Positions 14,080 to 49,421 of a stretch of 64,000 bases of DNA are shown in pieces. This stretch comes from Novakomyces olei. Taxonomy: Eukaryota. The notes beneath the pieces are model-generated. The model did no database searches. It saw nothing but the letters and a program-made list of their open reading frames with translations, and was not told the DNA's origin. Positions within the stretch are counted from its first letter, which is position 1; each line of letters begins with the position of its first letter. The stretch is from the NCBI GenBank assembly GCA_016906335.1, contig JADEYG010000003.1, positions 248,001 to 312,000 on the forward strand. Direction: 5' to 3'. The position numbers and the translations under genes were made by a program.

Positions 14080-15668
14080 CTAGATGTGTATCCTTCGCAG
14101 CAATTCGACACGTGCCATCCTTTTCTCCTCAACTGCACGACTCAGCAAGGTTGAATTTTCATCGGCTCGTCGGATCAGATATGGCAGCGTCTCCGTCACT
14201 GTACCATAAGGCATATACTTGTACACAGTCACAGACGGTGATGTCATATCACAGACTTCAGAGACAAGCAACTTTGTTAGGTCATCTCGCATCCCGTACA
14301 GCTGCGCAAATCCGACGCTTCGGTTCGAATCTGCGCCATTAACCTTCGCTTTCCTATTTTTCAGTAATTTTACAGCCAGCTGGCACGACTCGGCGTTGTG
14401 AGTGGCGATAATGAGCCCAAAAGCGTCTATTTCGCTTTCCAACAAGTATTTGACGCTTGCATTAAAAGCCTCATCTGTCTCTTCTTTTGAAGCATGAAAA
14501 GCAGCACGATGATCTTTTTCTGATTCCAAATAAGCGCCACGAACCAATTTAATGCCCAGTACAAACTTTCCCCGAGCGAGATCAAGATGCTTGTGCAGTA
14601 AAGGCGTAGCCGCTCTGGTGTACATTTGAAAGGTATTATAAACGATCGGCGGCCGGCCAAGTGTATTGTATTTGCTCGACAAATCAAGAGCCAAGGTGTC
14701 CAGTGCCTGTTGAAAGTAAGTTTGCTCGGCGTCAATTAGTAGCTTGACTCCCAGATCTCCACTCTTTTGACAAAGCTGCTCAAGATGAGTGTAGAGTAGA
14801 GAAAGCAATTGCTGGTCCTCCAAAGTCAAGTTTGAAGACTGTACTGCTCCCTGGAAACTGCTGGCCCCGTGTGTCGCAATGTGTGAGTTTAGTTGTAACA
14901 GCGATGCTGGATTAGTCATCCCGGTGATTTTGATTGCCACACAGTTGTTGGGCATGTTTGCTGCAATCTGAATTGCCTCCATTAAATCGGCAGTTTTAGA
15001 TTGCGTTAGCGCGGTAAAACTGCCAGAGTCTTGGACGGGTCCAGACACGTCGCTTTCCACACTGTGGTTTAGGATAACATGGATGTTTTGCGCCGCCAGT
15101 CTTTGTATAGTAGCAGCCGTCTCTTCCGAACTTTCTCCCCTACATGATGTGAGCGACAATTGCAGAATAAAAGAGATCAGAATCGAAAATTAAGACTGGA
15201 AAATAAAGCCTGAAAATATAGATTTGAAGAATAAAAATAATAATAAAAAAAGCATGAAAATTAAAATATCATCTGCTGCATTGGCACTACAAAACCTTAC
15301 CCGCAGAATTGTTTATAAAAGGTAAATCGCAGAGGGCCCTCGATCAGTTTCAAAAGATTCAGCCTTTGCAGCCCAGACACAAAATGTTTCCCCAGCGCGA
15401 CGAGGCTCGGATGCGACAGAGTCCAGTAAGAGACGTACTGCCGTAGCACTTGTGTCCACGGCCAATCGGCAAAGACCCTCGACTCGGATTCCTTTAGCTT
15501 TGTCCCGTGCAGATCAGCGCTTCCTGTGCCTGAACTTCCGAACCTTGAGCCAGCGCAGTTAACGCGGGATATTAAAAACATATTCCTGGCTAAATGTGCT
15601 TGATTTAAAGTTTTTGCCGGTTGCACAAGAGCCCGAGCGCTCATCGCTCGTGCGACTGTAGAGCTCAT
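14080..15668 (-). CDS. PUT1: Mitochondrial proline dehydrogenase
   Basis: Presequence-like N-terminus; FYKQFCG|GES; LLIDAEQTYFQ, KLVRGAYL, ATHNAES, FAQLYGM, YMPYG...PYLIRRADEN. Confidence 0.93.
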
Positions 15669-19193: not shown

Positions 19194-21644
19194 CTATACA
19201 TGTACAATCATATGATCCCGCTCGAGCTTTTGAAACTCGTAAACGACCCGCTCGTATCCCTTGTAGAGCTCAGCTGAGCTTTGCCTACGATCAGTCGTAT
19301 TTGCAAATGAAGCATCGTCTTCCGATGCAGAGGTAGCAGGCCGGGAAGCAGGCGGAAAAGTCTCGTTTTTCAAATGGTAAAGCGATGCGACAAAAGCATC
19401 GTTGAATATCTCGTCGATTTCAACGGGTCGGAACTCTGGCACAGATCCATACCCGGTGCGCCTGAGCTGCACTGCCTGCTCAAACTCGTGCCGATCCAGG
19501 ACTCTGGCCAGGGTAGGCAGCATTTCAGGGTCAATAACCCTATCGGCACTACCCTCATATTCAGCCAGGCGGGTGGCGACCCGGGTCAGCCCGTTTTCAC
19601 CGACGACGAGTACCAACAGTCGGCGCTGGTACGGGGAAAACGTGTAGCCCAGTGCACACAAGGACTCCCGGATGGAAAGTGCCTTTTGTGAAATAAAAGG
19701 CACGAGCGTACAGGCCTGCAAGCAGGCATCCACACACGATGAAGAAGGCGTAGACTTGACTTTGCCACCAATGAGCTGTGAGAACGCGTCGATAGCGAGC
19801 TGAGGAGCTCCGCATTGGAGGTAGCACTCAACAACGAGTTCACGAATAAAGGTTTCATTGGCAAAGTTTGTAGTTTGCAGCCCGTTTAGCACTCGGCGTA
19901 ATGCCGGTTCGCTGCGGAACTTTTTCAATCCTTGAATCATTGTTTCATAGAGCTCTGGAGATGATTGGAAGTGTGCTGACCTTTGGATGTCTGCGAAAAT
20001 ACGGAGCGGCCGCTGTACGTCACGGTCGTGCTCTAGCGACCACTGCAAAAATTCCCAATAAATTTTGGGTGATATTTGCAGAGCTGCAGATGCTGATAAA
20101 ACACAATAAATTTCGAAAATAAGGTCAGTAGGGTACCCGTGGCCTTTTGCTTTTCCACCATTTGCTTTTCCGCCTTTTGTGTTTGTGAAAAGGGTACCGA
20201 TTGCATTTATACAGGGCCGTTGTGCTTCTGGATGCTTTAATGCGAACTGTAATATAGCCATTAGTGGCTCTTGCAGTGATGCAAAGTCCCTTTCCTCTGT
20301 TTTACAGTACTCGACAGCACACGCAATACACTCTGCGAGATCGTTGGGCCTTATTTTCGGCCCTTGATCAGACGATAAGAGCGAGAGCACGTTGGCCAGG
20401 GAGATTGTTGTTTCATCAGTAATGGCAGAGATTAGTAAATGTTTGACTGCCCTGCTCTCCAGATCAGCAGGCATTTGCATGGCTTGGACAATGTAATTGG
20501 CAAGTTTGCCGTCCCCGGCCAACAATGAGGCCAGGAAAATCAAGTACTGTTTCTCCTGAGGCCCTACATTAATGTTCCAGCCAATAATCGTTATAAGCGC
20601 GTTTCCAATCGTGGCTAAACCCAGCTTTGCTGACCTTTCCAGTATTAAATTGAACGTCTCAAAGTCCGGCAGGCCCTTGGCTCGAAACTCTGGGGCTTCA
20701 AGTTTATCAATAACTTGGTCGATACATGCCTTTTCGCCGCTTGATAGCTTGACAAGCAGACGCAAGTTTTCCCGTGTTGTTTCCCTTACATTAAATTGGT
20801 CTAAAAGACACAACAAGTATTTACATCTCTCCAACGTTTGCCCAACCTCCCCCGGCCGGGGCAGAATTAGATCGCTGCTTAAAAAAAGGCTAAATGTCTG
20901 TGAATCCGGCGCCGGACCACGCGCCACCATCTCCTCGAAAACGCCCCATGCTGGCTCCATCATACCAGATCGTAAAAACCGGGATATAATAGCGTTGTAA
21001 GCGGCCAGGGGCAGGACGGGAAAGAGCGAGCTAGCCAGGTCCAGTGCGCTTGTAAGAGCAGCAATATCATCGCTAGCAGCAAATGCTTCAATAAAATGCG
21101 CCCAATCATCACAGTCAGCACTGCATGTACCAGAGTCGGACCATTGCAAAAGCGCTTTGATAGCAAACTCCTCTTCTCCAGCCCGGCAGAAATAAAATAT
21201 GGCCATTTGCATAAAATCAATAGTCTTGTCTGCCACTTTTGCAAAAACGGCTTTCGCTAGTCGGACATGGCTTGCGCTGGTAGTCGAGGCTGTTGTAATG
21301 GCTTCAAAGAAATATTGGAGACCTACGCGAGTTACAGGATCCAATTCCCGGTCCAATTGCTCAAATGCCTCTGCGTAATGAGCAGCCTGATCTTGAGAGG
21401 GACAAGGCTGAACTTTGCTCTGTTTTATGGACTGCAACAGCCGATCAAGCGACACTTTTTCCAGAGATTTCCGCTGAACCCACGATTGGAACAGCTGCCG
21501 AAGTCCGGCAGTGTGGTTAGTAGAGGCTGCTGAGCTATAACGCTTCTCATTAGAGCGCAATAAAATGCCTCTTGCTCTTGTACACCCGCTAAATTCGTGC
21601 GCTACTTCGCGGCCGCGAAGACCGCGGGACACGCACTGCCTCAT
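19194..21644 (-). CDS. Mitochondrial PPR-repeat protein (possibly CIA84-like)
   Basis: Intronless 816 aa; Arg-rich presequence-like start; clear PPR motif AYNAIISRFLRSGMMEPAWGVFEEMVARGPAPDSQTF plus degenerate repeats. Confidence 0.7.
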   Translation of the reverse strand: MRQCVSRGLRGREVAHEFSGCTRARGILLRSNEKRYSSAASTNHTAGLRQLFQSWVQRKSLEKVSLDRLLQSIKQSKVQPCPSQDQAAHYAEAFEQLDRELDPVTRVGLQYFFEAITTASTTSASHVRLAKAVFAKVADKTIDFMQMAIFYFCRAGEEEFAIKALLQWSDSGTCSADCDDWAHFIEAFAASDDIAALTSALDLASSLFPVLPLAAYNAIISRFLRSGMMEPAWGVFEEMVARGPAPDSQTFSLFLSSDLILPRPGEVGQTLERCKYLLCLLDQFNVRETTRENLRLLVKLSSGEKACIDQVIDKLEAPEFRAKGLPDFETFNLILERSAKLGLATIGNALITIIGWNINVGPQEKQYLIFLASLLAGDGKLANYIVQAMQMPADLESRAVKHLLISAITDETTISLANVLSLLSSDQGPKIRPNDLAECIACAVEYCKTEERDFASLQEPLMAILQFALKHPEAQRPCINAIGTLFTNTKGGKANGGKAKGHGYPTDLIFEIYCVLSASAALQISPKIYWEFLQWSLEHDRDVQRPLRIFADIQRSAHFQSSPELYETMIQGLKKFRSEPALRRVLNGLQTTNFANETFIRELVVECYLQCGAPQLAIDAFSQLIGGKVKSTPSSSCVDACLQACTLVPFISQKALSIRESLCALGYTFSPYQRRLLVLVVGENGLTRVATRLAEYEGSADRVIDPEMLPTLARVLDRHEFEQAVQLRRTGYGSVPEFRPVEIDEIFNDAFVASLYHLKNETFPPASRPATSASEDDASFANTTDRRQSSAELYKGYERVVYEFQKLERDHMIVHV

Positions 21645-21920
21645 TGCATTTCCCTGTTATGCGTGCCAGTCTGTTTGTTGGAAAAAAGCAAGTGCTCACG
21701 CTTGTTTCATGCTAAACCATCTTGCCTTTGCGTTGAAGCGCTTCGTCCAGTCTAAACTGCATTAAAGAATTGTTTGCTGCTTGTTTAGGGTTAATTAGGC
21801 TCTATTAGGGTTAACACCGACCATTATTAAATAATAAATAATAAATAATAATTAATAATTAATAATTAATAATTAAAAATAATTAAATCAGAATAAAATA
21901 GTTGAATTGAATGCCAATGC

Positions 21921-23798: not shown

Positions 23799-24389
23799 AA
23801 TAAATTCAAAAAATGGAACGCTTTTACGGGCGAAATGTACTACTGACAATGCTTTGCATTGTTACTTTAGCCAAATGATGGTGCGGACAAAAAGACTCTA
23901 ACGAATTGCACAGAGACGAATATTATATTGCCAGCGGAAAACTATACTGGTCCTATTAGCGATGACAGTCCCACAGATAGTGTAAATATTTTGCGTATAA
24001 TTAGTCTCATTATGAATAATATAAAAGCCAAAATATGCAAGGAAGAATACTAGATCAAAAGAAAGTGGTTTAATGCTTTTTTCTGTCCAAAAAAATCGTT
24101 GCTCTCGACGGTCGAGTATTTATTTGTTCCGACCCACGATTTCCGACTTTTGTTGCTGATTCTAAACACAAATCGTAAATTTGACAAGTACTCCAATCAT
24201 AACGATTCTAAATTAAATAGACTCAAACACTGTGCAACTGAATAATGGCTTGGGTTATGATATTCCTTTTGTTTTGCGTAAAATTATCCTCCTTTCACGT
24301 TTGAAGACATGGGAAGTCTGCCTTTAAATATGGAAATCTGCCACTTTGTCCAAAAACAAAATTTAAAAAAGATAAAAAAAAAATGCACA

Positions 24390-24987
24390 CTACAAAGGTT
24401 TTTCTTCGTGGTTCACGAACGCTTCACGTTTACCACCGGTCCCAGCAGATACGTCCGCATACTCAAGCTCATCATCCTCGTCGTTCCCATAGACTTCCGG
24501 GTGCATTCTAAAACAGTTTTGCATTGCTTGGAACTGATCAATGCAGTCAATACCCTTCGGCTCCTTTTCACTGTACACAAAGCACGAGAAAGCCATTTTA
24601 AACTGCTCTCCACAGGGCCCATGAGCCATTCCACCCAAGCAGGGACAGTCCCAGTTTATTTCACCAGTCTCTGGGTTAAAGGCTGCCTGGTTCTCTCCGC
24701 CAGCTTCGTGTTCAGCGACCTCGGAGGACACATGACTGGCAATCTTGGCTCCTGAGTCTTCGCTCCCAGACGTGTTGCTGCCTCCACTAGGCTTTTGTCC
24801 GGACTTTGTATCAGCAGCTCCACTGCCCTGACCTCCGACTGAAATTGCATCAGCTTGATGCCTGGAAGATGAGTCTTGTTTACTAACGCCAGAAGCATGC
24901 TGTTTTTCGTGGTCAATTCCTAGTACTGTGTCACCAATCCTGTGAAGCAGGCCAGGCTCTGTATCGTTTCCAGATTGATTAGCAGAA

Positions 24988-25052
<65 letters not shown>

Positions 25053-28000
25053 AACAAAGCTTTGCCTTGCAGCATCATTAGAATCGCGCTTGGCATAATC
25101 CGCAGAGTAACTTGAACCATTCACAGAAGCATGCTGCTTTTCATGATCAATGCCCAAGACTGTATCTCCTATTTTATGAAGAAGACCAGGTTCAGTATCG
25201 TTCAATGGCTGAGACGCTCCTTCAGCTCCGCCTTTCAGCCCTCCATGACTTTGGCTGAGGCTATAGTGTGTTTTATTTTTATCGCCAAAGCCGTCCTGAG
25301 CGCCGTTTGAAGTGTACGGGTGAAGGCCTGTATAGTACCGATCTGACGCGGAAGCATTTGCAGAAGAATTGGAACTGACATCTCCGCGGGAATAAGACAA
25401 GGCCTCGTTGCCAGACTCTCCTCGGCTCTGGTCATAAGTGCCCTTGCCTTGAACAGACCCAGAATGCTGTTTTTCATGGTCTATTCCAAGGACACGGTCC
25501 CCTATTCTATGCAGCAAGGGCGGCTTTTCCTGTTCATTCGGTGGAGTTGGCAGCTGTCCCCGACTAGTGGCCGAAAGAAAACTGCCCTGAGCAGTTGAGG
25601 ATCGCGCTTCTGCCTCACTCAATGGTCTGAACCCGCCCGTGTTGTCTGCAACAAACAAACGGCCGTTTATATCGACAATTTCTTGAGATCCCGATTGATC
25701 AGATCTTGACTGATCAGATCCCGACTGATAAGATCCCGACTGATAAGATCCTGACTGATTATAGCCTGGTCCCCTTCCGTTATAGGCATCTCCATCACGA
25801 ACAAACTTGTAGCCATCATTGTCGTTGCTAAAATTGACCGCAGCAATTCGGTCATTGGCTCCTTTAGATGCCTCACTATAGCTAAAATCTTCAAGGACTC
25901 TTCCATCGTATTGAACTGCTTCTCTTATTGCCGATTTGCTGGGCTTTGCATCATTATCTCCTCCCAGAATCTGATTACTATAATCTTGCAATTTGCCTGC
26001 TCCATCCTTCAAATGCTGCTCAGCTGACCGGGCAGCATCAGAGACTTTGCCTGTTAAATGATCAACGTCCTCCCGAGCCCGACCGGCCCACTTGCGTGCT
26101 TTATCCTCACCCTTGTGAATCAGGTCTTGCAAGTCGCCGTGAAGGTCGCCGGCTTCCTCCTTTGTTTGTTCATACTGCCTGGCTAAATCTGCTCGGAAGT
26201 TGACGTCCTGGTGCGGGGAAGAGTCATGGTCTTTTGCATGATCTGCATGGTCAATTCCGAGCGCTTTGTCGCCCAGTTTATGCAGAAATGAGGGCTCGTC
26301 AGCGTTCTGTCCATGATCTGCTTTGCTTCTACTGTCTTGATTGTCACTGGCAGTTGAATTTGTCAATATTTCTCCTGTTTTACCTATCAATTCGCCTGCC
26401 CGATCGACTGCCGCAGAGCCAATCTGACTTAGGCTACTGCCTTCAACGCTTCTGTCTTGATCATGCTCGTCAAATCTGTACTGTCTGTTTTGAGCATGAT
26501 CTCTCTCGTGATCAATGCCGCGTACCGTATCACCGAGTTTATGCAAAAGCCCAGGATCACTACTGCCATCATTGCCGCTATCGAAAGAAGCGTTCCTCAG
26601 ATTCGCAGTACCATAAGCACCGGAATCAGTGTACGATCCTTGGCCAACTGATCCGCCCACGTATGCTGATCCGGATGGTGTATTCAGCTGGCCAGGCCCT
26701 TCCATGCCGGGACATGCCATCTCCGCATAATCTTTGTCGATCTTGATGCCCCTGATTGCTCCACCTGTTGTTGGTCAGATTAGATCGAAATGATATATGA
26801 GAGATAAAAATGTGAAAGAAATAGGGATTGACAGAAGTAAAGATTCGACAGAGAAAACCAAATAGAATACATATAGAAACAAGATTAAAAAAACAACAAC
26901 ACAAGAACAAAATTGGGTTATATTAATTGTTAAAAAATACATATCATTTATTTTCAGATTCATAACAATTTAAAAAAAAACATATAGACAAATAGGGAAA
27001 AGTACCGTCTAATCTGTCATCTTTCGAAGACCCGTCAAAACCCTCCTTCGAATAAGAAAGAGTTTCGTCTGGAGAGTTATCATTTGCACGATCAATAGAA
27101 CGTTTCTTTGCCTCTTTATTACGACGACGGTTGATTTGTGTAAGAGCCAAAGCAGATACAAGAAAGGCCAATCCTCCCAGAATCCAAGGATTTTCACGAT
27201 TATCGTGAGGCTGACCTGAGCCAGAGCCAGAGCCAGAGCCAGAGCCAGAACCTGAACCTGAACCTGAACCTGGACCGGAGCCAGAACCTGAGCCTGAGCC
27301 AGTGCTAGAGTTTCTGACCTTTCCCCCTAAACCTGCAGCCTTTTCAGACGTCGCTTTCAAGCTTGATTTGACAGAATTTGCAGAGGATACTAGACTGTTC
27401 ATCATACTGGACAATGCAGCGTTCTTTGGAAGAAAAGTATTGTCAGATTCCTCATTCAGCTTTCTAGCGGCTTCAAATCCATCTTCGGCATGATTTGAAT
27501 CTGACTTTCCAGATCCTTGTTCCCTTGATTGGTCGGGGTACTTTAATCCCGAACCGTCTCTTGCATTAGGAGCCTGCAGCCTTTCCAGTTTAGCGTTTGG
27601 AGACGCATGGCAGGATGAGCCCATCTTTTGACCAAAAACGCCCTGGTCAGGTTTGGTGGAGCGGAGAAAAGGACCTTGGCGGTGAGTTAATGAAACATTT
27701 TCTTCATAGTTGTTTAGAACAGGTGATTTACCAGTAGCAGCAGACGCAGGCTCGGACTTGCCGGCTATGCTTGAGCTCTCTGCCGAGGACTTGGAGTCTT
27801 TTCCGATTGGTCCAGAGTGTGTCTGTTGAAAGTTGGAGGCAGACGAATTGACACCGGAAGTGCTCCGTCTTGCAAAGGGCCAAAGACTCGGCATTCCTTC
27901 ATCCTCTGCATGGTATCCCATGCCCTGAGTGGGCTTTCTTCCTTCAGAATTCTGTGCAGAGAGACCGTCTGCCAAGTCGGAGCCGCTCTGATCATTCATT

Positions 28001-30170
28001 CCGCGTTTCTTATTGCCTTGGCCGGTAAAAGATTCAGACGAAAGGGCTGAAGGCTGGCTGCTGCCAAAAGTTCCATTGCTTACAGAATGCTCATCCGCCT
28101 TTTGAGCTCTGAGACCTTGATCCATTTCATTTCTAGAAGACGAAGCCGAACTTTCACTCTTTTTCATTAGACCGGCTGCTCCAGCAGCAGCCGTCGGAAC
28201 AAGCCCTGAAGCAAAAGCAGGAATAGAGTTTGAGGAAGGCTGCTCGGTTTTGTCACCAGATCGAGTCGCTCCCGGTCTATGGCCAGCAACGTTCAACGTT
28301 TGATCACGGAGCAAACTGCTGTGTTGTGCTCCGTTCGGGAACCTTTGACTCACCATCCCAGAGTCTGTAATATGAGGCTGACAGTAGCTGGTGCTTTTAT
28401 TACTGCCCGTAGAGCCCTCAGGCTTTGCAGAAGTCTCATGGCCGAGTCCAGCCACGTCTAAGAGAGCATTGTGTGGCAAATTAGCGGTATTTATAGTCTT
28501 GTTTCCGGTCTCATAATTTGAGGCATTTTCCGGCTTTTTCAACAAACGTGCTCCAGGCTTATTAGCACTAAAATTAGTGACAATTCTGTTATTGCTGGCA
28601 ACGTTCCCATCCGCATCTTTGCCCGCATTTTTAAATAGAGGGCCAGCGTACGATTTGGGTACATCAATTCCAGCGCTGCTTTGACGATTGTTAGGACGAT
28701 TATTTGCTTCAAAGGCGGTTGTTGGAGTAGAGCGAGAGCCAGTGCTTCCTGGGCTTTTCGTACTCTCCAAACTAGCTCCTGCTTTTGCTGCTGAGCTAGT
28801 GGCCTTGGTGTTTACTGAGGATTTATTTGAGGCTGTATTATGGCTCTCGGCAGCTTTGTATCTAGAAGCAGAGCTGTGTGCTTTAGTGGGGGAACTGCTT
28901 GCTTTGGCCGGCGAGGGCTTTGCTGTAGAATCCTTTGCTGGCTGTTTAGAGTCTGATTGCGCAGATGAATGGACAGAGCCCCTTGTCGAAGACTGTCTCC
29001 GCGAAAGAGTGCCCTGCGCTTTTTGAGCGCCTTTGCTAGAATCATTTTGAGCCTTTGAGCTTTTCAAATCAACAGATTTGCCCGAGCTTCGATCCTTATC
29101 ACCTGGCAAAGACGAAACCGAAGGGCCAGCAGTACTAGAGGTTCCAGACCTTGCAGACTTTGAAGCTGTCGAATTTCCAGATACTTTGGAAGCGTCAGAA
29201 ACACCAGGACTGGACGCGTCCTTTTGAGCACTTTTCCGCGGCCTGCCTCGAGTTGCAGCAGCCTTCACGTCCCCCTGGCTGCCTGCAGAAATTTCTGATT
29301 TACTATCGGCACTAGATCCACCCTTGCCTGTCGCATTTTTGGACTTGCCGGTCTTGGAGACGTCACCGGATGAGCTACCAGCCTGGATAGAGCCTTTACC
29401 CTGCGCTCCAGATTCTGATTTTACCTTACCTGCAACTTTTGCCGATCGTGCGGCAGTAGTCTCGGAGCTTTTGGACTTTGCCGACGCTGCATTATACGTG
29501 TCGCCCGTTTTATTTCCCTCATTTGCTCCATTGTCCGCACTGGCAGAGGCGGCTGAGCCTTTCCCACCTTTCCCACTTTTGCCGTCAGTGGCTGTGGGTG
29601 TAGAGAACTCTGAGCCTCCAGTCTTGGCACCCGCACCAGCGCTTGCGAGAAGGGTATCTAGAGCATTAGTTGAAAGCAATCAAATTAATCGGTTTGTAAT
29701 TAGAAAATTAATAATTAAATTGAAACGCAACAGAGTGTCTCCTCCCCCGGTAGCTTACCCCTTGCAGGCCGTCCACGTCCACGCTTAATTGGGGCAGAAG
29801 CAGTGCCGGACGTGAGCGCGTCTATCGTATTTCGCTGCAAATCGAGCGATACAAAAGCACCTCGAGCACGTCGATTGTGGGGACTGTGGAGGTATACTTT
29901 GACGTTTGACAGATGCACTTCGTCGCCGGTGACGGTAACACTCTCAGACGGAACAGAAGCAGAGCCGGAAGAGTCTGCAGCGGCAATTGCTGGACTAGAG
30001 CCAGCTGGCTGCTTTGACTTTACTGCCAGAGGCCGTGTAGAAGACGAAACAGCGTACTCCCGCAGAAGCGAGAGCGGAGAAAAGCGGCAGGGAGGCAAAG
30101 CAGCCGCGCGCACACGCAGCTGCCCGGCCGTTTTAGCCGCTCGCGATATAGACCACGGTCTTGTGCTCAT
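24390..30170 (-). CDS. MIA40: Giant Mia40 mitochondrial IMS oxidoreductase/import receptor, ~1812 aa (3 exons)
   Basis: Exons 30170-29759, 29657-27006 and 26764-24390 total 5439 nt and join in frame through two phase-1 introns. C-terminal [25 protein letters not shown]9-C...C-X9-C; presequence-like start; TM segment [18 protein letters not shown]. The Mia40 domain is certain; the fusion is inferred from splice signals. Confidence 0.8.
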
Positions 30171-30811
30171 GAACGAGCAGTCTTGCCTTCTTATCGAGCT
30201 GTCAAAATAATTATATTTTCAATATCGGACTTTTCTGTCAGCTGGTTAGTGGACAGTATATAAAGTATTTGTAATACGAAATAAAGGTTTAGCTGGAAGG
30301 ATGCCGGTATTAACAGAGTATAGGAAATGTGGAATAAAACTGGACAAATCTCTTAAAATTAAAAATAATCATAAATATAGAATAATCATAAATCATAAAT
30401 AACAATAAAATATGGAAAATATCATATGAAAAAAATAATATTAAACCAGATTAGTGAATCACACAAGACTAAACCATACAAAAATTAACAAATAAATGAC
30501 AGAAAATAAAAGAATCCGTACTCCAAGGCCAAGCACGAATCGTACGTGCCAAGGTCGCGATATTAATGCCCGAGGGTCTGATATAGATAAAACTAATTTC
30601 AAGCTGTTTGCTTAATATTTCAAAGTCAATTGGAAACGCCAGACTGTTTAAAGAAGGAGATTTTTGGTCCTTGTCTGATATGTGCAAGACTTACTCTCCT
30701 GAAAATGCCAACCACCAAGCAAGTGGAGTAGAATGCCGTAACGATTCTTCGGGTCAAGCCACTTGGAGTATTCCAAGTAAAAAAGAATCGTACTGAATGG
30801 ATCAATCTGTC

Positions 30812-37715: not shown

Positions 37716-39845
37716 ATGCGGTGTGGGAAACGGGTCGCTGTGCCGCCTATTCTCTATTTTTGCCGCCGTCTTGACCTCAATGCACCGTCCACAGTTTTAT
37801 CGCGGCGATTTAGCAGCGCAAGGGGCTCTGATACAAATGATAACTCTGGCAGTTTACTGGAACAGTACCATTTGAAATCACCGCGAGAGATAAAAGAGGA
37901 ATTTGATCGATACGTGTGTGCACAGGAAAATGCGAAACGCGTGCGTAAGTGGGATTTTTTTGGGGATTTGTTTTACATTTTTTATTATGCTTTTTCTGTT
38001 TTCAAATTTTGGTCCCGTATAATCTGGTTTTATATAGCGATAGCGGCTAACTAAAGTCTCGGTCGCGTGCTACAATCATACTCTACGCTCAGCCGCACTT
38101 GATCAATCGCGGCAGCGGCAGCGGCAGCAGGAATTGGAGAGGCGTGGACTTGATTCAATCGATGCCGCAGCAGAGGCAAACATAGAGTCCGAGGATTTCT
38201 TCGAGTACCCGCGGCCAATGCGTAGTATGTGTTCTGTCTATTTTTGCTTTGTTTGCTATTGCATTCATATTGGATGTTTGTTTAATTCTTTTTCCTTTCT
38301 GTTTTTATTTATTTTATTTTTCCTTTTTTCCTTGTGTTGACAACAGAAATCGAATCGTCCGCTGAACGAGGATCGCATAAAAGACACAACGCCGAGGATT
38401 ACCGTACAAATGAAACGAACTCGACTCGAAAAGCTGCTCGGCAAGAGAAGTCAAGCAAGACTTTGAATACAAGCATAAAGCCAAACCCTTCCGAAGCCTC
38501 AGCCAGCAGTGACTCTGGATTTGAACAAGTAGTGCTTGAAAAATCAAACGTTCTCCTTCTTGGCCCTACAGGCTCAGGCAAGACTCTACTTGCACAGACC
38601 CTGGCCAAATTCCTCGATGTTCCCTTCAGTATGAGCGACTGTACGGCAATGACTCAGGCCGGGTATGTCGGTGAAGACGTAGACTCTTGTATCTTGCGGT
38701 TACTGGCAGCTAGCGACTATGACGTGGCCAGAGCGGAACACGGGATTATTTGCCTTGATGAGGTGGATAAAATAGCGAGACGTACGAGTGAGTCCCCGGT
38801 TTCTGGACGCGATGTTGCTGGCGAAGGAGTGCAACAGGCCCTTTTAAAGATATTGGAAGGTACCACCATTACAGTCACGGATCGTAGTGGAGGTGCCGGC
38901 CACCAGTCTTCTAGGGATGAAAGGCCCCGGACCGGGTACGGATTGCCTCCACACAACTTGGCTTCGGGAACAAGTAACACTATAGGGTCGGGGCCGGGTT
39001 CTGTTGCAAACGGACCACAGACTTACACGGTGGATACGTCGAATATTTTGTTTATTCTTACGGGAGCTTTCACTGGGCTGGATAAGATTATTATGGACCG
39101 AGCGGCAAAGGGAGCCATTGGGTTCAATGCCCGCATTCGAGGGGCCGTCAGTGACAGTGAGAGGCTTCTAATGGAACAGTGGGACCTTGGAGTATCTGCT
39201 CGTAATCTGCGGTTCAGAGAAGAAAAGAAAAAGAATGATGCTGATGCGAGAGAGCAAAAGAGCGATGAAAATAAGTATGATAAAAAATCGAAAACTGAAG
39301 ACTATGATGCGAATGATACTTCTCGCATTTATGCTTATGCTCAGCCCGAGGATCTTGTTCGATACGGGTTTCTGCCTGAGTTCGTTGGACGTGTCCCTCA
39401 AATAACGAGTATGCACGAGCTCTCTCGCGATGATCTGGTTCGTGTTATTATTGAGCCACAGAACGCTCTGGAAAAACAGTACCAGCAACTCTTTAGATTG
39501 TCCGGAATTAATCTGACATTTACCCGGGCTGCTTTGCATACTGTTGCTGAGAAAGCACGAGCAATGAAGCTGGGGGCTCGAGGATTGAGGCGTATTTTAG
39601 ATGCTTGTGTTCACGAAGCCAATTTTGATGCTCCTGGTGGCGGAGTGAGAGGTCTAGTCATAACCCGAGAAGTGGTCCTTGGCAACGAGAGGCCGCATTT
39701 TTTCTCTCGCAGCCAAATGTCGGACATTGATCGGCTTGTTGCTGAAGAAGATGCTTCTTTTTTTGGCAATGAATCTACTGACGCCAATTCTTCTTTTGCC
39801 GACTCGGGATTAGAACAACGGTCGAGTCATGCATCGATCCCTTGA
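37716..39845 (+). CDS. MCX1: Mitochondrial ClpX chaperone
   Basis: SPREIKEEFDRYVCAQENAKRV|LSVACYNH; LEKSNVLLLGPTGSGKT, TQAGYVGEDV, GEGVQQALLKILEG, GARGLR; two introns. Confidence 0.93.
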
Positions 39846-47707: not shown

Positions 47708-48844
47708 TCAAGCCCTTATCCAGCCCGGCTTATCCAGCAGCTGATCGAGCGGCCAGTCGCGCACTCTCTGAGCATCCCAGGCGGTAGTGTACCCGAGGCG
47801 GTACATTTCCAGTCCGGCCCAGGCAACCATAGCGGCATTGTCACTGCAAAGCTCAGGCTGAGGAAAGTAGACGCGCATTGTCGGCCCCAACTGCTCGAGC
47901 AGCATTTTACGCAGCAGCCCGTTCCTGGCGACTCCGCCGCTGCATACAAGGCTGTTTGCTGCCGAGTTTTGTGCAGCCATAGCCGTTCTTCTTAGAATAT
48001 GCTGGAACGCCAGCTGCTGGCCTCGGCGGCCAATGCTCTTCCTCTCCGGCTCAGTAAGCCCACTGCTAGTGAGCCGCTGTAGAGCACTCCCGAGCCCGGC
48101 AAAAGTGTAAAACAACGAGGCTACATGCTTCGGCTTCGTCGTTAGCGGCTCAGGCACAGGCCAGGACAGGTCCATGTCTCTCACACTATAATCCCCCTCA
48201 AAGCTCCACTGCTCAAGCGCAGCGGCCGGCATTTTGCCGCCCCACGGAACACTTACGGCACGTGCCAGCTTGTCCAGCATATCCCCAACGGCCACGTCCA
48301 TCGTGGAAGCCAAAACTTTGTGCTGCGTAACGCTGTGGGAGAGCACGAGTAGCGTATGTCCGCCCGACACGAGAAGGCTCAAGTACGGAAACTCGGGTTC
48401 CGCTCCGCCCGACTCGAGACGTGGAGTGAGAGCGTGCGCCTGCATATGGTGCACTCCGATAAAGGGCACCCTTAACCCTAGGGCTAAGCCTTTTCCAACA
48501 TTGAGGCCCTGGGCCAGACTGCCATTCATGCCGGGGCCGCGTGTGGCCGCTACGAGTCCAATACGGCAGCCACTTGGCAATTCTTGCAGAGCGCGATACA
48601 CTAGCGGAGCAGTGTTTCTCGACTGCGACTGCATTGCCACGTCCGGGTGAATGCCTCCATACTGCTCTGTCTCGTCGAGGCACCGTACAGTGTGCATTAA
48701 ATGCACCTTTGCCGGTGCCAACACCGATCCTTGTTCAATCACACACACACTCGTGTCATCGCAGCTTGTTTCGATGCCGAGAACGCAAAAGCTGCGACGC
48801 AGCTTTTGCTTTGATTGGACGACGAGTCGTCTCGCGCTCTGCAT
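47708..48844 (-). CDS. QRI7: Mitochondrial tRNA t6A threonylcarbamoyltransferase
   Basis: Intronless; VLGIETSCDDT, GVHHMQAHALTPRL, LLVSGGHT, SGGVARN, CSDNAAMVAW. Confidence 0.93.
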   Translation of the reverse strand: MQSARRLVVQSKQKLRRSFCVLGIETSCDDTSVCVIEQGSVLAPAKVHLMHTVRCLDETEQYGGIHPDVAMQSQSRNTAPLVYRALQELPSGCRIGLVAATRGPGMNGSLAQGLNVGKGLALGLRVPFIGVHHMQAHALTPRLESGGAEPEFPYLSLLVSGGHTLLVLSHSVTQHKVLASTMDVAVGDMLDKLARAVSVPWGGKMPAAALEQWSFEGDYSVRDMDLSWPVPEPLTTKPKHVASLFYTFAGLGSALQRLTSSGLTEPERKSIGRRGQQLAFQHILRRTAMAAQNSAANSLVCSGGVARNGLLRKMLLEQLGPTMRVYFPQPELCSDNAAMVAWAGLEMYRLGYTTAWDAQRVRDWPLDQLLDKPGWIRA

Positions 48845-49421
48845 TAGCACATGAGTTGGAAATAATTTATAATAATAGTAAATAGTAAATAAAACAATGA
48901 ATAATGAATAATAAATAATAAATAATAAATAATAAAATAAAATAAAATAAAATAAAATAATAATAAAACAATAAACAATAAATAATAAATAATAAATAAT
49001 AAAATAATTGTTGAAATTGTTCTTGTTGAAAAGATGGATTCATATTATTTTGCTAGTATCTAATGCAATTATAGATGATTAAACCTAACCATAACTCTAA
49101 CCATAATTCTAGGTTATTTTTCTAGCACGATTTTAGATGATCTTAGACCAAGATCAGAATTTATTAGATTTATTATAAATATTTAAATAGGTGTTAGTCA
49201 AGTCATAGCAATAGTATGCCAGAATCAGTTAGGGTTAGGGTTAGTTATCTTACCGTAACACTAACTGTTATAAATACCGGCAGAAATAATTTAATAATTT
49301 AATATATCTTTTCACAAGCAAAGTAGCATTTTACACAATAATAGTATTCTAACAACAATCTAACAATATGATAAATAATAAAAAATAATAAATAATATTT
49401 GAACGCCTGAGCATAGCGTTC

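Follow-up and report, generated by a model that had tools for sequence, protein, structure and literature searches.

The DNA analysed here, referred to below as the window, is a 64,000-nucleotide (nt) stretch of Novakomyces olei (contig JADEYG010000003.1, positions 248,001 to 312,000). On its minus strand, between positions 30170 and 24390, lies a locus best modelled as a single gene, whose end encodes the conserved core of Mia40, a membrane-anchored import oxidoreductase, and whose upstream part encodes a long low-complexity arm carrying two AT-hook cores. Coordinates are those of the window; the features of the gene are all on the minus strand and are given from the higher to the lower position.

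Gene model and Mia40 core

The downstream end of the locus encodes a Mia40 core (24698-24480), in which a C-P-C motif (residues 1728-1730 of the product described below) is followed by a twin C-x9-C motif (1739/1749 and 1762/1772). The core matched yeast Mia40 (2zxt) with an E-value of 2.2e-36 and human Mia40 (2k3j) with 1e-29, and its cysteines align column by column with those of the yeast protein. Pfam CHCH scored 27.0 bits, against a cut-off of 27.2. Sixty-one fungal homologues of the core were found, at E 1.7e-11 or better. By such comparisons, this core is unmistakably that of Mia40.

Comparisons between full-length proteins were made with a set of 62 homologues, all of at least 434 amino acids: 61 proteins of 434-1383 amino acids and one longer, fused gene model (the whole set spanning 434-1549 amino acids). 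A hydropathy scan detected an anchor helix in 14 of the 62, starting at residues 36-70; the others either had no N-terminal helix above the scan threshold, or were models fused to a neighbouring gene. The longest homologues that do not look fused have 667-677 residues (P0042, P0049 and P0050), and a search for longer forms of Mia40 returned a single fused gene model only.

The best model for the locus has three exons, joined by two predicted splices into a product of 1812 residues. Exon 1 (30170-29759) begins at the first ATG of its open reading frame (ORF) and encodes residues 1-137 and, with its last base, the start of codon 138. Its guanine-plus-cytosine content (GC) is 0.58 and its in-frame codon score +0.10 bits per codon, while the DNA upstream is AT-rich and non-coding. 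Intron 1 (29758-29658, 101 nt) fits in phase, and both its donor (GTAAGC) and its branch site (CTAAT, 8 nt before the terminal TAG) are canonical, as in other candidate introns of the window. Exon 2 (29657-27006) encodes the serine-rich low-complexity arm, a Gly-Ser (GS) repeat, a membrane helix and the basic stretch that follows it. It is part of a 911-codon stop-free frame, whose 300-nt blocks score +0.07 to +0.26 bits per codon. As no ATG is present in this exon for about 430 codons, the second AT hook, which it encodes, can be translated only through exon 1. Support for joining exons 1 and 2 is good.

Putative intron 2 (27005-26765, 241 nt) reads GTACTT at its donor and CAG at its acceptor, with CTAAT and CTGAC located 15 and 10 nt upstream of the latter; it also fits in phase. 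Its GC is 0.25, dropping to 0.19 at the donor and climbing to 0.50 at the acceptor. Reading through the donor would add 19 codons with a GC of 0.19 and a codon score of 0.008; the 13 codons between the acceptor and the first ATG of exon 3 score +0.28. Exon 3 (26764-24390) runs to the stop codon and encodes an acidic linker with five His-rich motifs, another GS repeat and the Mia40 core. It is part of a 794-codon frame, with an in-frame codon score of +0.24 to +0.31. Over all 300-nt blocks of the proposed frame the codon score ranges from +0.07 to +0.31 bits per codon, compared with +0.11 to +0.31 for 10 conserved genes of the window, and the remaining frames of the locus are open for 186 codons at most. 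We conclude that the arm, which belongs to the 911-codon frame and shares the codon usage of the 10 conserved genes, is coding.

The only helix in some 1020 residues upstream of putative intron 2 sits 43 residues before its donor, immediately upstream of the Mia40 frame. Read from the first Met of exon 3, the Mia40 frame has no Lys or Arg (K/R) in 40 residues, and no helix. This coincidence of position, together with the composition steps at both ends of putative intron 2, lends good, though not decisive, support to the proposed join between helix and core. Along 26607-27209, a contig assembled from the DNA of another, independent sample (record 13 of run X2) shows zero differences, so the intron 2 region is not an assembly error. 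Putative intron 2 also contains a T-rich and very hydrophobic 64-codon frame (26969-26775), in frame with exon 3 and with one TGA between the two; given a GC of 0.25 and a codon score of about 0, T-richness most likely accounts for it.

The arm, the AT-hook cores and the linker

The N-terminus of the product (30170-30051, residues 1-40) is presequence-like by a hand-made heuristic: it has 7 K/R, 6 of which are Arg, its first acidic residue is at position 38, and an R-E-Y|A site (of the R-x-Y|A type) is found at 37-40. These values are within the range of 11 presequences of Mia40 homologues (5-9 K/R, and no acidic residue before position 32). A single transmembrane helix is predicted at 27189-27133 (residues 961-979), followed by a basic stretch, a layout also present in the anchored homologues. 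It is the only 19-residue window with a mean Kyte-Doolittle value of at least 1.6 among the 1812 residues.

AT hooks are minor-groove binders of AT-rich DNA (Aravind and Landsman 1998, as cited in PMC12453217). Their sequence is recognised by a G-R-P core, usually R-G-R-P, with basic flanks, and two copies of it are present here. The first, K-R-G-R-G-R-P-A-R (29786-29760, residues 129-137), occupies the final codons of exon 1; the second, T-R-G-R-P-R-K (29253-29233, residues 273-279), is in exon 2, and the two are about 140 residues apart. Both had been reported in an initial annotation of this DNA, and both were found again at these positions in the minus-strand translation; their placement N-terminal to the transmembrane helix was also confirmed, the helix at 961-979 being the only strongly hydrophobic one. 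The two hooks hold the only two GRP tripeptides of the 1812-residue product.

To evaluate the occurrence of RGRP, 200,000 shuffles were made of the 960 residues that precede the helix. They contained 0.0137 copies on average, with one copy or more in 1.4% of the shuffles and two or more in a fraction of 8.5e-5. Among the other stop-to-stop ORFs of at least 180 amino acids in the window (14,670 amino acids), one further RGRP was counted, in a KRE6-like ORF and without basic flanks. We conclude that two basic-flanked RGRP cores are not due to chance. The codons used for R-G-R-P differ between the hooks at all four positions (CGT GGA CGG CCT in one, CGA GGC AGG CCG in the other), which rules out a recent DNA duplication as the origin of the pair, and points to hooks kept at the protein level. 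A search of PDB sequences with the segment of hook 2 gave no match at E up to 10.

The pre-helix part contains 20% Ser, 12% Ala, 12% Gly and 8% Lys, and has a net charge of +33 over 823 residues. It is moderately basic at residues 100-500, about neutral at 600-900, and ends with a (Gly-Ser)n run; the hooks are thus located in the more basic N-terminal third of an arm of about 920 residues. The initial annotation described this region as Lys/Ser/Ala-rich and as resembling a histone H1 tail, which was overstated: Lys makes up only 8%, and the S/T-P-x-K/R motif was seen twice, i.e. at chance level (P 0.48), and an H1-like arm defined by such motifs was therefore rejected. Exons 1 and 2 matched no Pfam family at E up to 1. 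AlphaFold2 run on exon 1 without an alignment was uninformative (mean predicted local distance difference test score, pLDDT, of 34.5).

The (Gly-Ser)n run just before the helix is encoded by an imperfect hexanucleotide repeat, detected by Tandem Repeats Finder (TRF) at 27310-27214. A second hexanucleotide microsatellite with another unit (24988-25052) also encodes (Gly-Ser)n in the Mia40 gene. All Logan contigs of runs X1 and X2 break at both of these microsatellites, whose length is likely to differ from strain to strain.

The acidic linker that separates helix and Mia40 core spans about 740 residues. It contains five His-rich motifs of about 20 residues (26561-26472, 26300-26211, 25529-25440, 25196-25107 and 24962-24873), with the consensus x-P-x-(L/F)-L-H-(K/R)-(L/I)-G-D-x-x-(L/R)-G-I-D-H-x-x-x-H. 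No Pfam family was found for this motif, and a weak YtxH-like match (E 0.17) was only nearby. Its histidines might bind a metal, with a possible relevance to Mia40 function in the intermembrane space. The motifs may also resemble amphipathic dehydrin-type segments; a paper on dehydrin-like DPR repeats (PMC3103405) has no consensus in its text. A 15-nt tandem repeat of 4.9 copies (25686-25759) encodes a run of Ser/Gly/Tyr/Gln-rich pentapeptides within the linker.

Proposed location of the arm and alternative readings

In reviews, the Mia40 of fungi figures as a protein with an N-terminal anchor that has a mitochondrial targeting signal and a transmembrane domain and enters through TIM23 (PMC8069373). 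Given the presequence-like N-terminus, and this published route for the yeast protein, it is a reasonable inference that the arm lies on the matrix side. The net charge is +46 N-terminal to the helix and -46 C-terminal to it, an asymmetry expected for an inner-membrane anchor with its N-terminus inside. The reading we favour, without putting it above an even chance as a whole, is that of one gene with a matrix-facing arm, whose hooks probably contact mitochondrial DNA (mtDNA) weakly. The fungal design of Mia40 would be retained, i.e. a presequence, a single helix that anchors the protein in the inner membrane, an acidic linker on the intermembrane-space side and the CPC/twin-CX9C core, and two very large low-complexity inserts would have been added to it, one of about 920 residues between presequence and anchor and one of about 740 residues between anchor and core. 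The presequence would engage TIM23, and the chain would be pulled in until the helix stops the transfer. The whole first insert would then be threaded into the matrix, while staying tied to the inner membrane. As the nucleic acids of the matrix would be mtDNA and mitochondrial RNA only, these would be the sole partners of the hooks, which would most likely make weak minor-groove contacts with AT-rich mtDNA, as a lineage-specific accessory contact and no conserved function of Mia40.

The initial annotation had gone further, and suggested that the protein could anchor AT-rich mtDNA nucleoids to the inner membrane at import sites of the intermembrane space. In this lineage, Mia40 would then be two-sided, oxidising incoming proteins at its end in the intermembrane space, and holding nucleoids next to import sites by the AT hooks of its matrix arm of about 920 residues. 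The AT-hook cores and their probable shared frame with a helix and a genuine Mia40 core are supported here, as is a presequence-like start; the H1-like label is not, and the mtDNA tether is a speculation to which we give little credence.

Several observations weigh against a DNA contact by the arm, or against the gene model from which it is derived. An AT-hook-like motif was present in none of the 62 Mia40 homologues (434-1549 amino acids); AT hooks are therefore no conserved feature of the Mia40 family. The arm itself is an orphan. A phmmer search with exon 2 against 1.84 billion representative sequences gave 3 matches (E 4e-4 to 8e-4), all of them chance Gly-Ser repeats in unrelated proteins. 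Neither exon 3 nor exon 2 had a relative in scans of metagenomes, and in the ESM Atlas the best score for exon 1 was 0.79, below the useful range, residues 1-330 of exon 2 having no usable match. DNA runs X3 and X4 had little coverage of the stretch, and contained no diverged relative there. With no detectable relative of the arm, purifying selection on the hooks is not demonstrable. In the profile scan that had been suggested for the hooks, hook 2 scored 16.2 bits (E 0.009) with Pfam AT_hook (PF02178), just below the cut-off of 17.4, and hook 1 was not reported, whether offered as a cut fragment or within the whole of exon 1. The PF02178 model has 13 positions only, and such a near miss is weak evidence in either direction. 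The pre-helix region is mildly basic, serine-rich, disordered and of low complexity, and the presequence call comes from the hand-made heuristic. The donor of putative intron 2 (GTACTT) is weak, as it lacks the G at +5 present in all seven better candidate introns of the window, chosen by eye (GTAAGA twice, GTAAGT twice, GTAAGC, GTATGC and GTAAGG), and no canonical in-frame donor was found near it. No single Logan contig crosses 27210-27313, the GS repeat by which arm and helix are connected. Finally, one report on S. cerevisiae gives nucleoid size as unchanged upon depletion of Mia40 (PMC3681690).

These points feed several other explanations of the locus. The full-length frame could be real, with an arm that is a fast-evolving and largely functionless low-complexity expansion, and hooks without any role at mtDNA. 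They could then be a neutral leftover, serve an RNA or import-related contact, or be part of a spacer. The orphan status of the arm, the absence of hooks in homologues, the low complexity and the mildly basic character are all accounted for in this way, which makes it a serious, if unlikely, contender; it has more difficulty with two basic-flanked RGRP cores written with differing codons, which are very unlikely without selection. As a variant of it, working Mia40 could come mainly from a shorter form, starting at a Met-Met about 70 residues before the helix. There are indeed 5 K/R among the 40 residues after the internal Met at residue 889, and fungal Mia40 is reported to have a membrane anchor that is not essential (PMC8069373). 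This internal region, however, has 1 Arg only and an acidic residue at position 21, so that it is less presequence-like than the true N-terminus, and exon 2 shows no AT-rich, promoter-like dip. Distinctly less probable, in our view, is the absence of a second intron, with two genes at the locus: an AT-hook protein ending at 26944, and an anchor-less Mia40 starting at the ATG at 26720. The upstream product, with its helix near the C-terminus, could hold chromatin as a protein of the nuclear envelope or of another membrane; AT hooks are typical of nuclear proteins. The weak donor, with no canonical in-frame replacement, is in line with this arrangement, and the in-frame stop (26946-26944) is overlapped by an AATAAA. 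But the last 19 codons of such an upstream gene, given their GC and codon score, would be unlike all coding blocks of the locus, the gap between the stop and the next ATG is only about 224 nt, and the rise in GC occurs exactly at the acceptor. Moreover, the separate Mia40 would have neither presequence nor helix, although fungal Mia40 is described as N-terminally anchored (PMC8069373) and an anchor is detectable in 14 of the 62 homologues, while the upstream protein would have an N-terminus that looks mitochondrial.

A single protein could also have its arm facing the cytosol or the nucleus, either through an outer-membrane helix with the Mia40 core in the intermembrane space, or through dual targeting; the hooks would in that case either encounter nuclear DNA or have no partner at all. 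Nuclear proteins commonly have a long, disordered and basic arm that carries AT hooks, but the presequence-like N-terminus, the positive charge before the helix and the negative charge after it, together with the reported import of fungal Mia40 by TIM23 (PMC8069373), make this location very unlikely. Lastly, the assembly could have joined arm and helix wrongly at the GS-coding repeat (27210-27313), within which every Logan contig of X1 and X2 ends. The contig ends enter this 104-nt masked stretch by 94 letters on one end and 37-38 on the other, which means that they overlap by about one k-mer, as neighbouring unitigs do, and the same pattern is shared by two studies. The repeat is imperfect, its unit differs from that of the other GS repeat, and both frame and codon usage continue across it. 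A mis-join at this repeat is therefore unlikely, and as an explanation of the whole arrangement it is hardly credible. DNA identical to 24300-30300 was also present, at a depth of about 2-6, in X2 and X3 (from another study and under another organism label), samples of which the organism seems to be a minor component.

Genomic context and relation to known systems

The window is fungal nuclear DNA, and among its genes are a KRE6/SKN1 gene, a fungal-specific transcription factor and proteasome subunits. The proteins nearest to the conserved KRE6-like gene are at most 56% identical to it, and the best matches of this ORF come from Taphrinomycotina, Pezizomycotina and Lipomyces alike. By these matches, the host appears to be an ascomycete without a close sequenced relative in the protein collection searched. 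Several families that are typically mitochondrial are encoded near the Mia40 gene: a proline dehydrogenase (14080-15189), a pentatricopeptide repeat (PPR) protein (19194-21656), a ClpX-like AAA protein (38286-39845) and a TsaD/Qri7-like protein (47708-49039). Their proximity is probably a coincidence in a compact genome.

The predicted product would share with S. cerevisiae Mia40/Tim40 (2zxt) the CPC plus twin CX9C core, the presequence-like start, a helix followed by basic residues, and the acidic linker. It differs from anchored fungal Mia40 by the position of its anchor, at residue 961 instead of 36-70 in the 14 homologues, by about 920 extra residues that contain two AT-hook cores, by a linker of about 740 residues with five His-rich motifs, and by its total length of 1812 residues. 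Its hooks presumably resemble those of HMGA, and of PF02178 proteins in general, by an R-G-R-P core, K/R on one or both sides and a disordered region around them; unlike these, they number only two, they do not reach the Pfam cut-off, and their predicted compartment is mitochondrial rather than nuclear.

Proteins with both a mitochondrial targeting signal and AT hooks are described elsewhere: the mtHMG protein of Podospora anserina, reported to act at mtDNA (PMC7463775), and some trypanosomatid homologues of TAC53, reported to act at kinetoplast DNA (kDNA; PMC12453217), direct DNA binding of TAC53 being given as unconfirmed in one source (PMC13108849). In contrast to the present product, these are soluble or filament-bound DNA proteins (with an HMG box, or belonging to the tripartite attachment complex, TAC), and not membrane-anchored import oxidoreductases. 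ATAD3 of animals, for which binding to D-loop DNA and a role in organising nucleoids are reported (PMC6747513), is similar to the proposed model in being an inner-membrane protein linked to nucleoids, but it is an AAA+ ATPase without AT hooks, has no sequence relation to Mia40 and is outside the MIA pathway. Within the literature library searched, no paper combines Mia40 and AT-hook.

The case is carried by one orphan gene model, and its weight is accordingly modest. The attachment of nucleoids at the fungal inner membrane is poorly understood. If the reading of a matrix-facing, DNA-contacting arm were true, an import component with a DNA-binding arm on the matrix side would be a new type of link, by which protein import is physically coupled to the mitochondrial genome. 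Even without any DNA function, the gene would offer an unusual natural experiment on import driven by a presequence, with about 920 residues between presequence and anchor, far beyond the anchor positions of residues 36-70 in the homologues compared.

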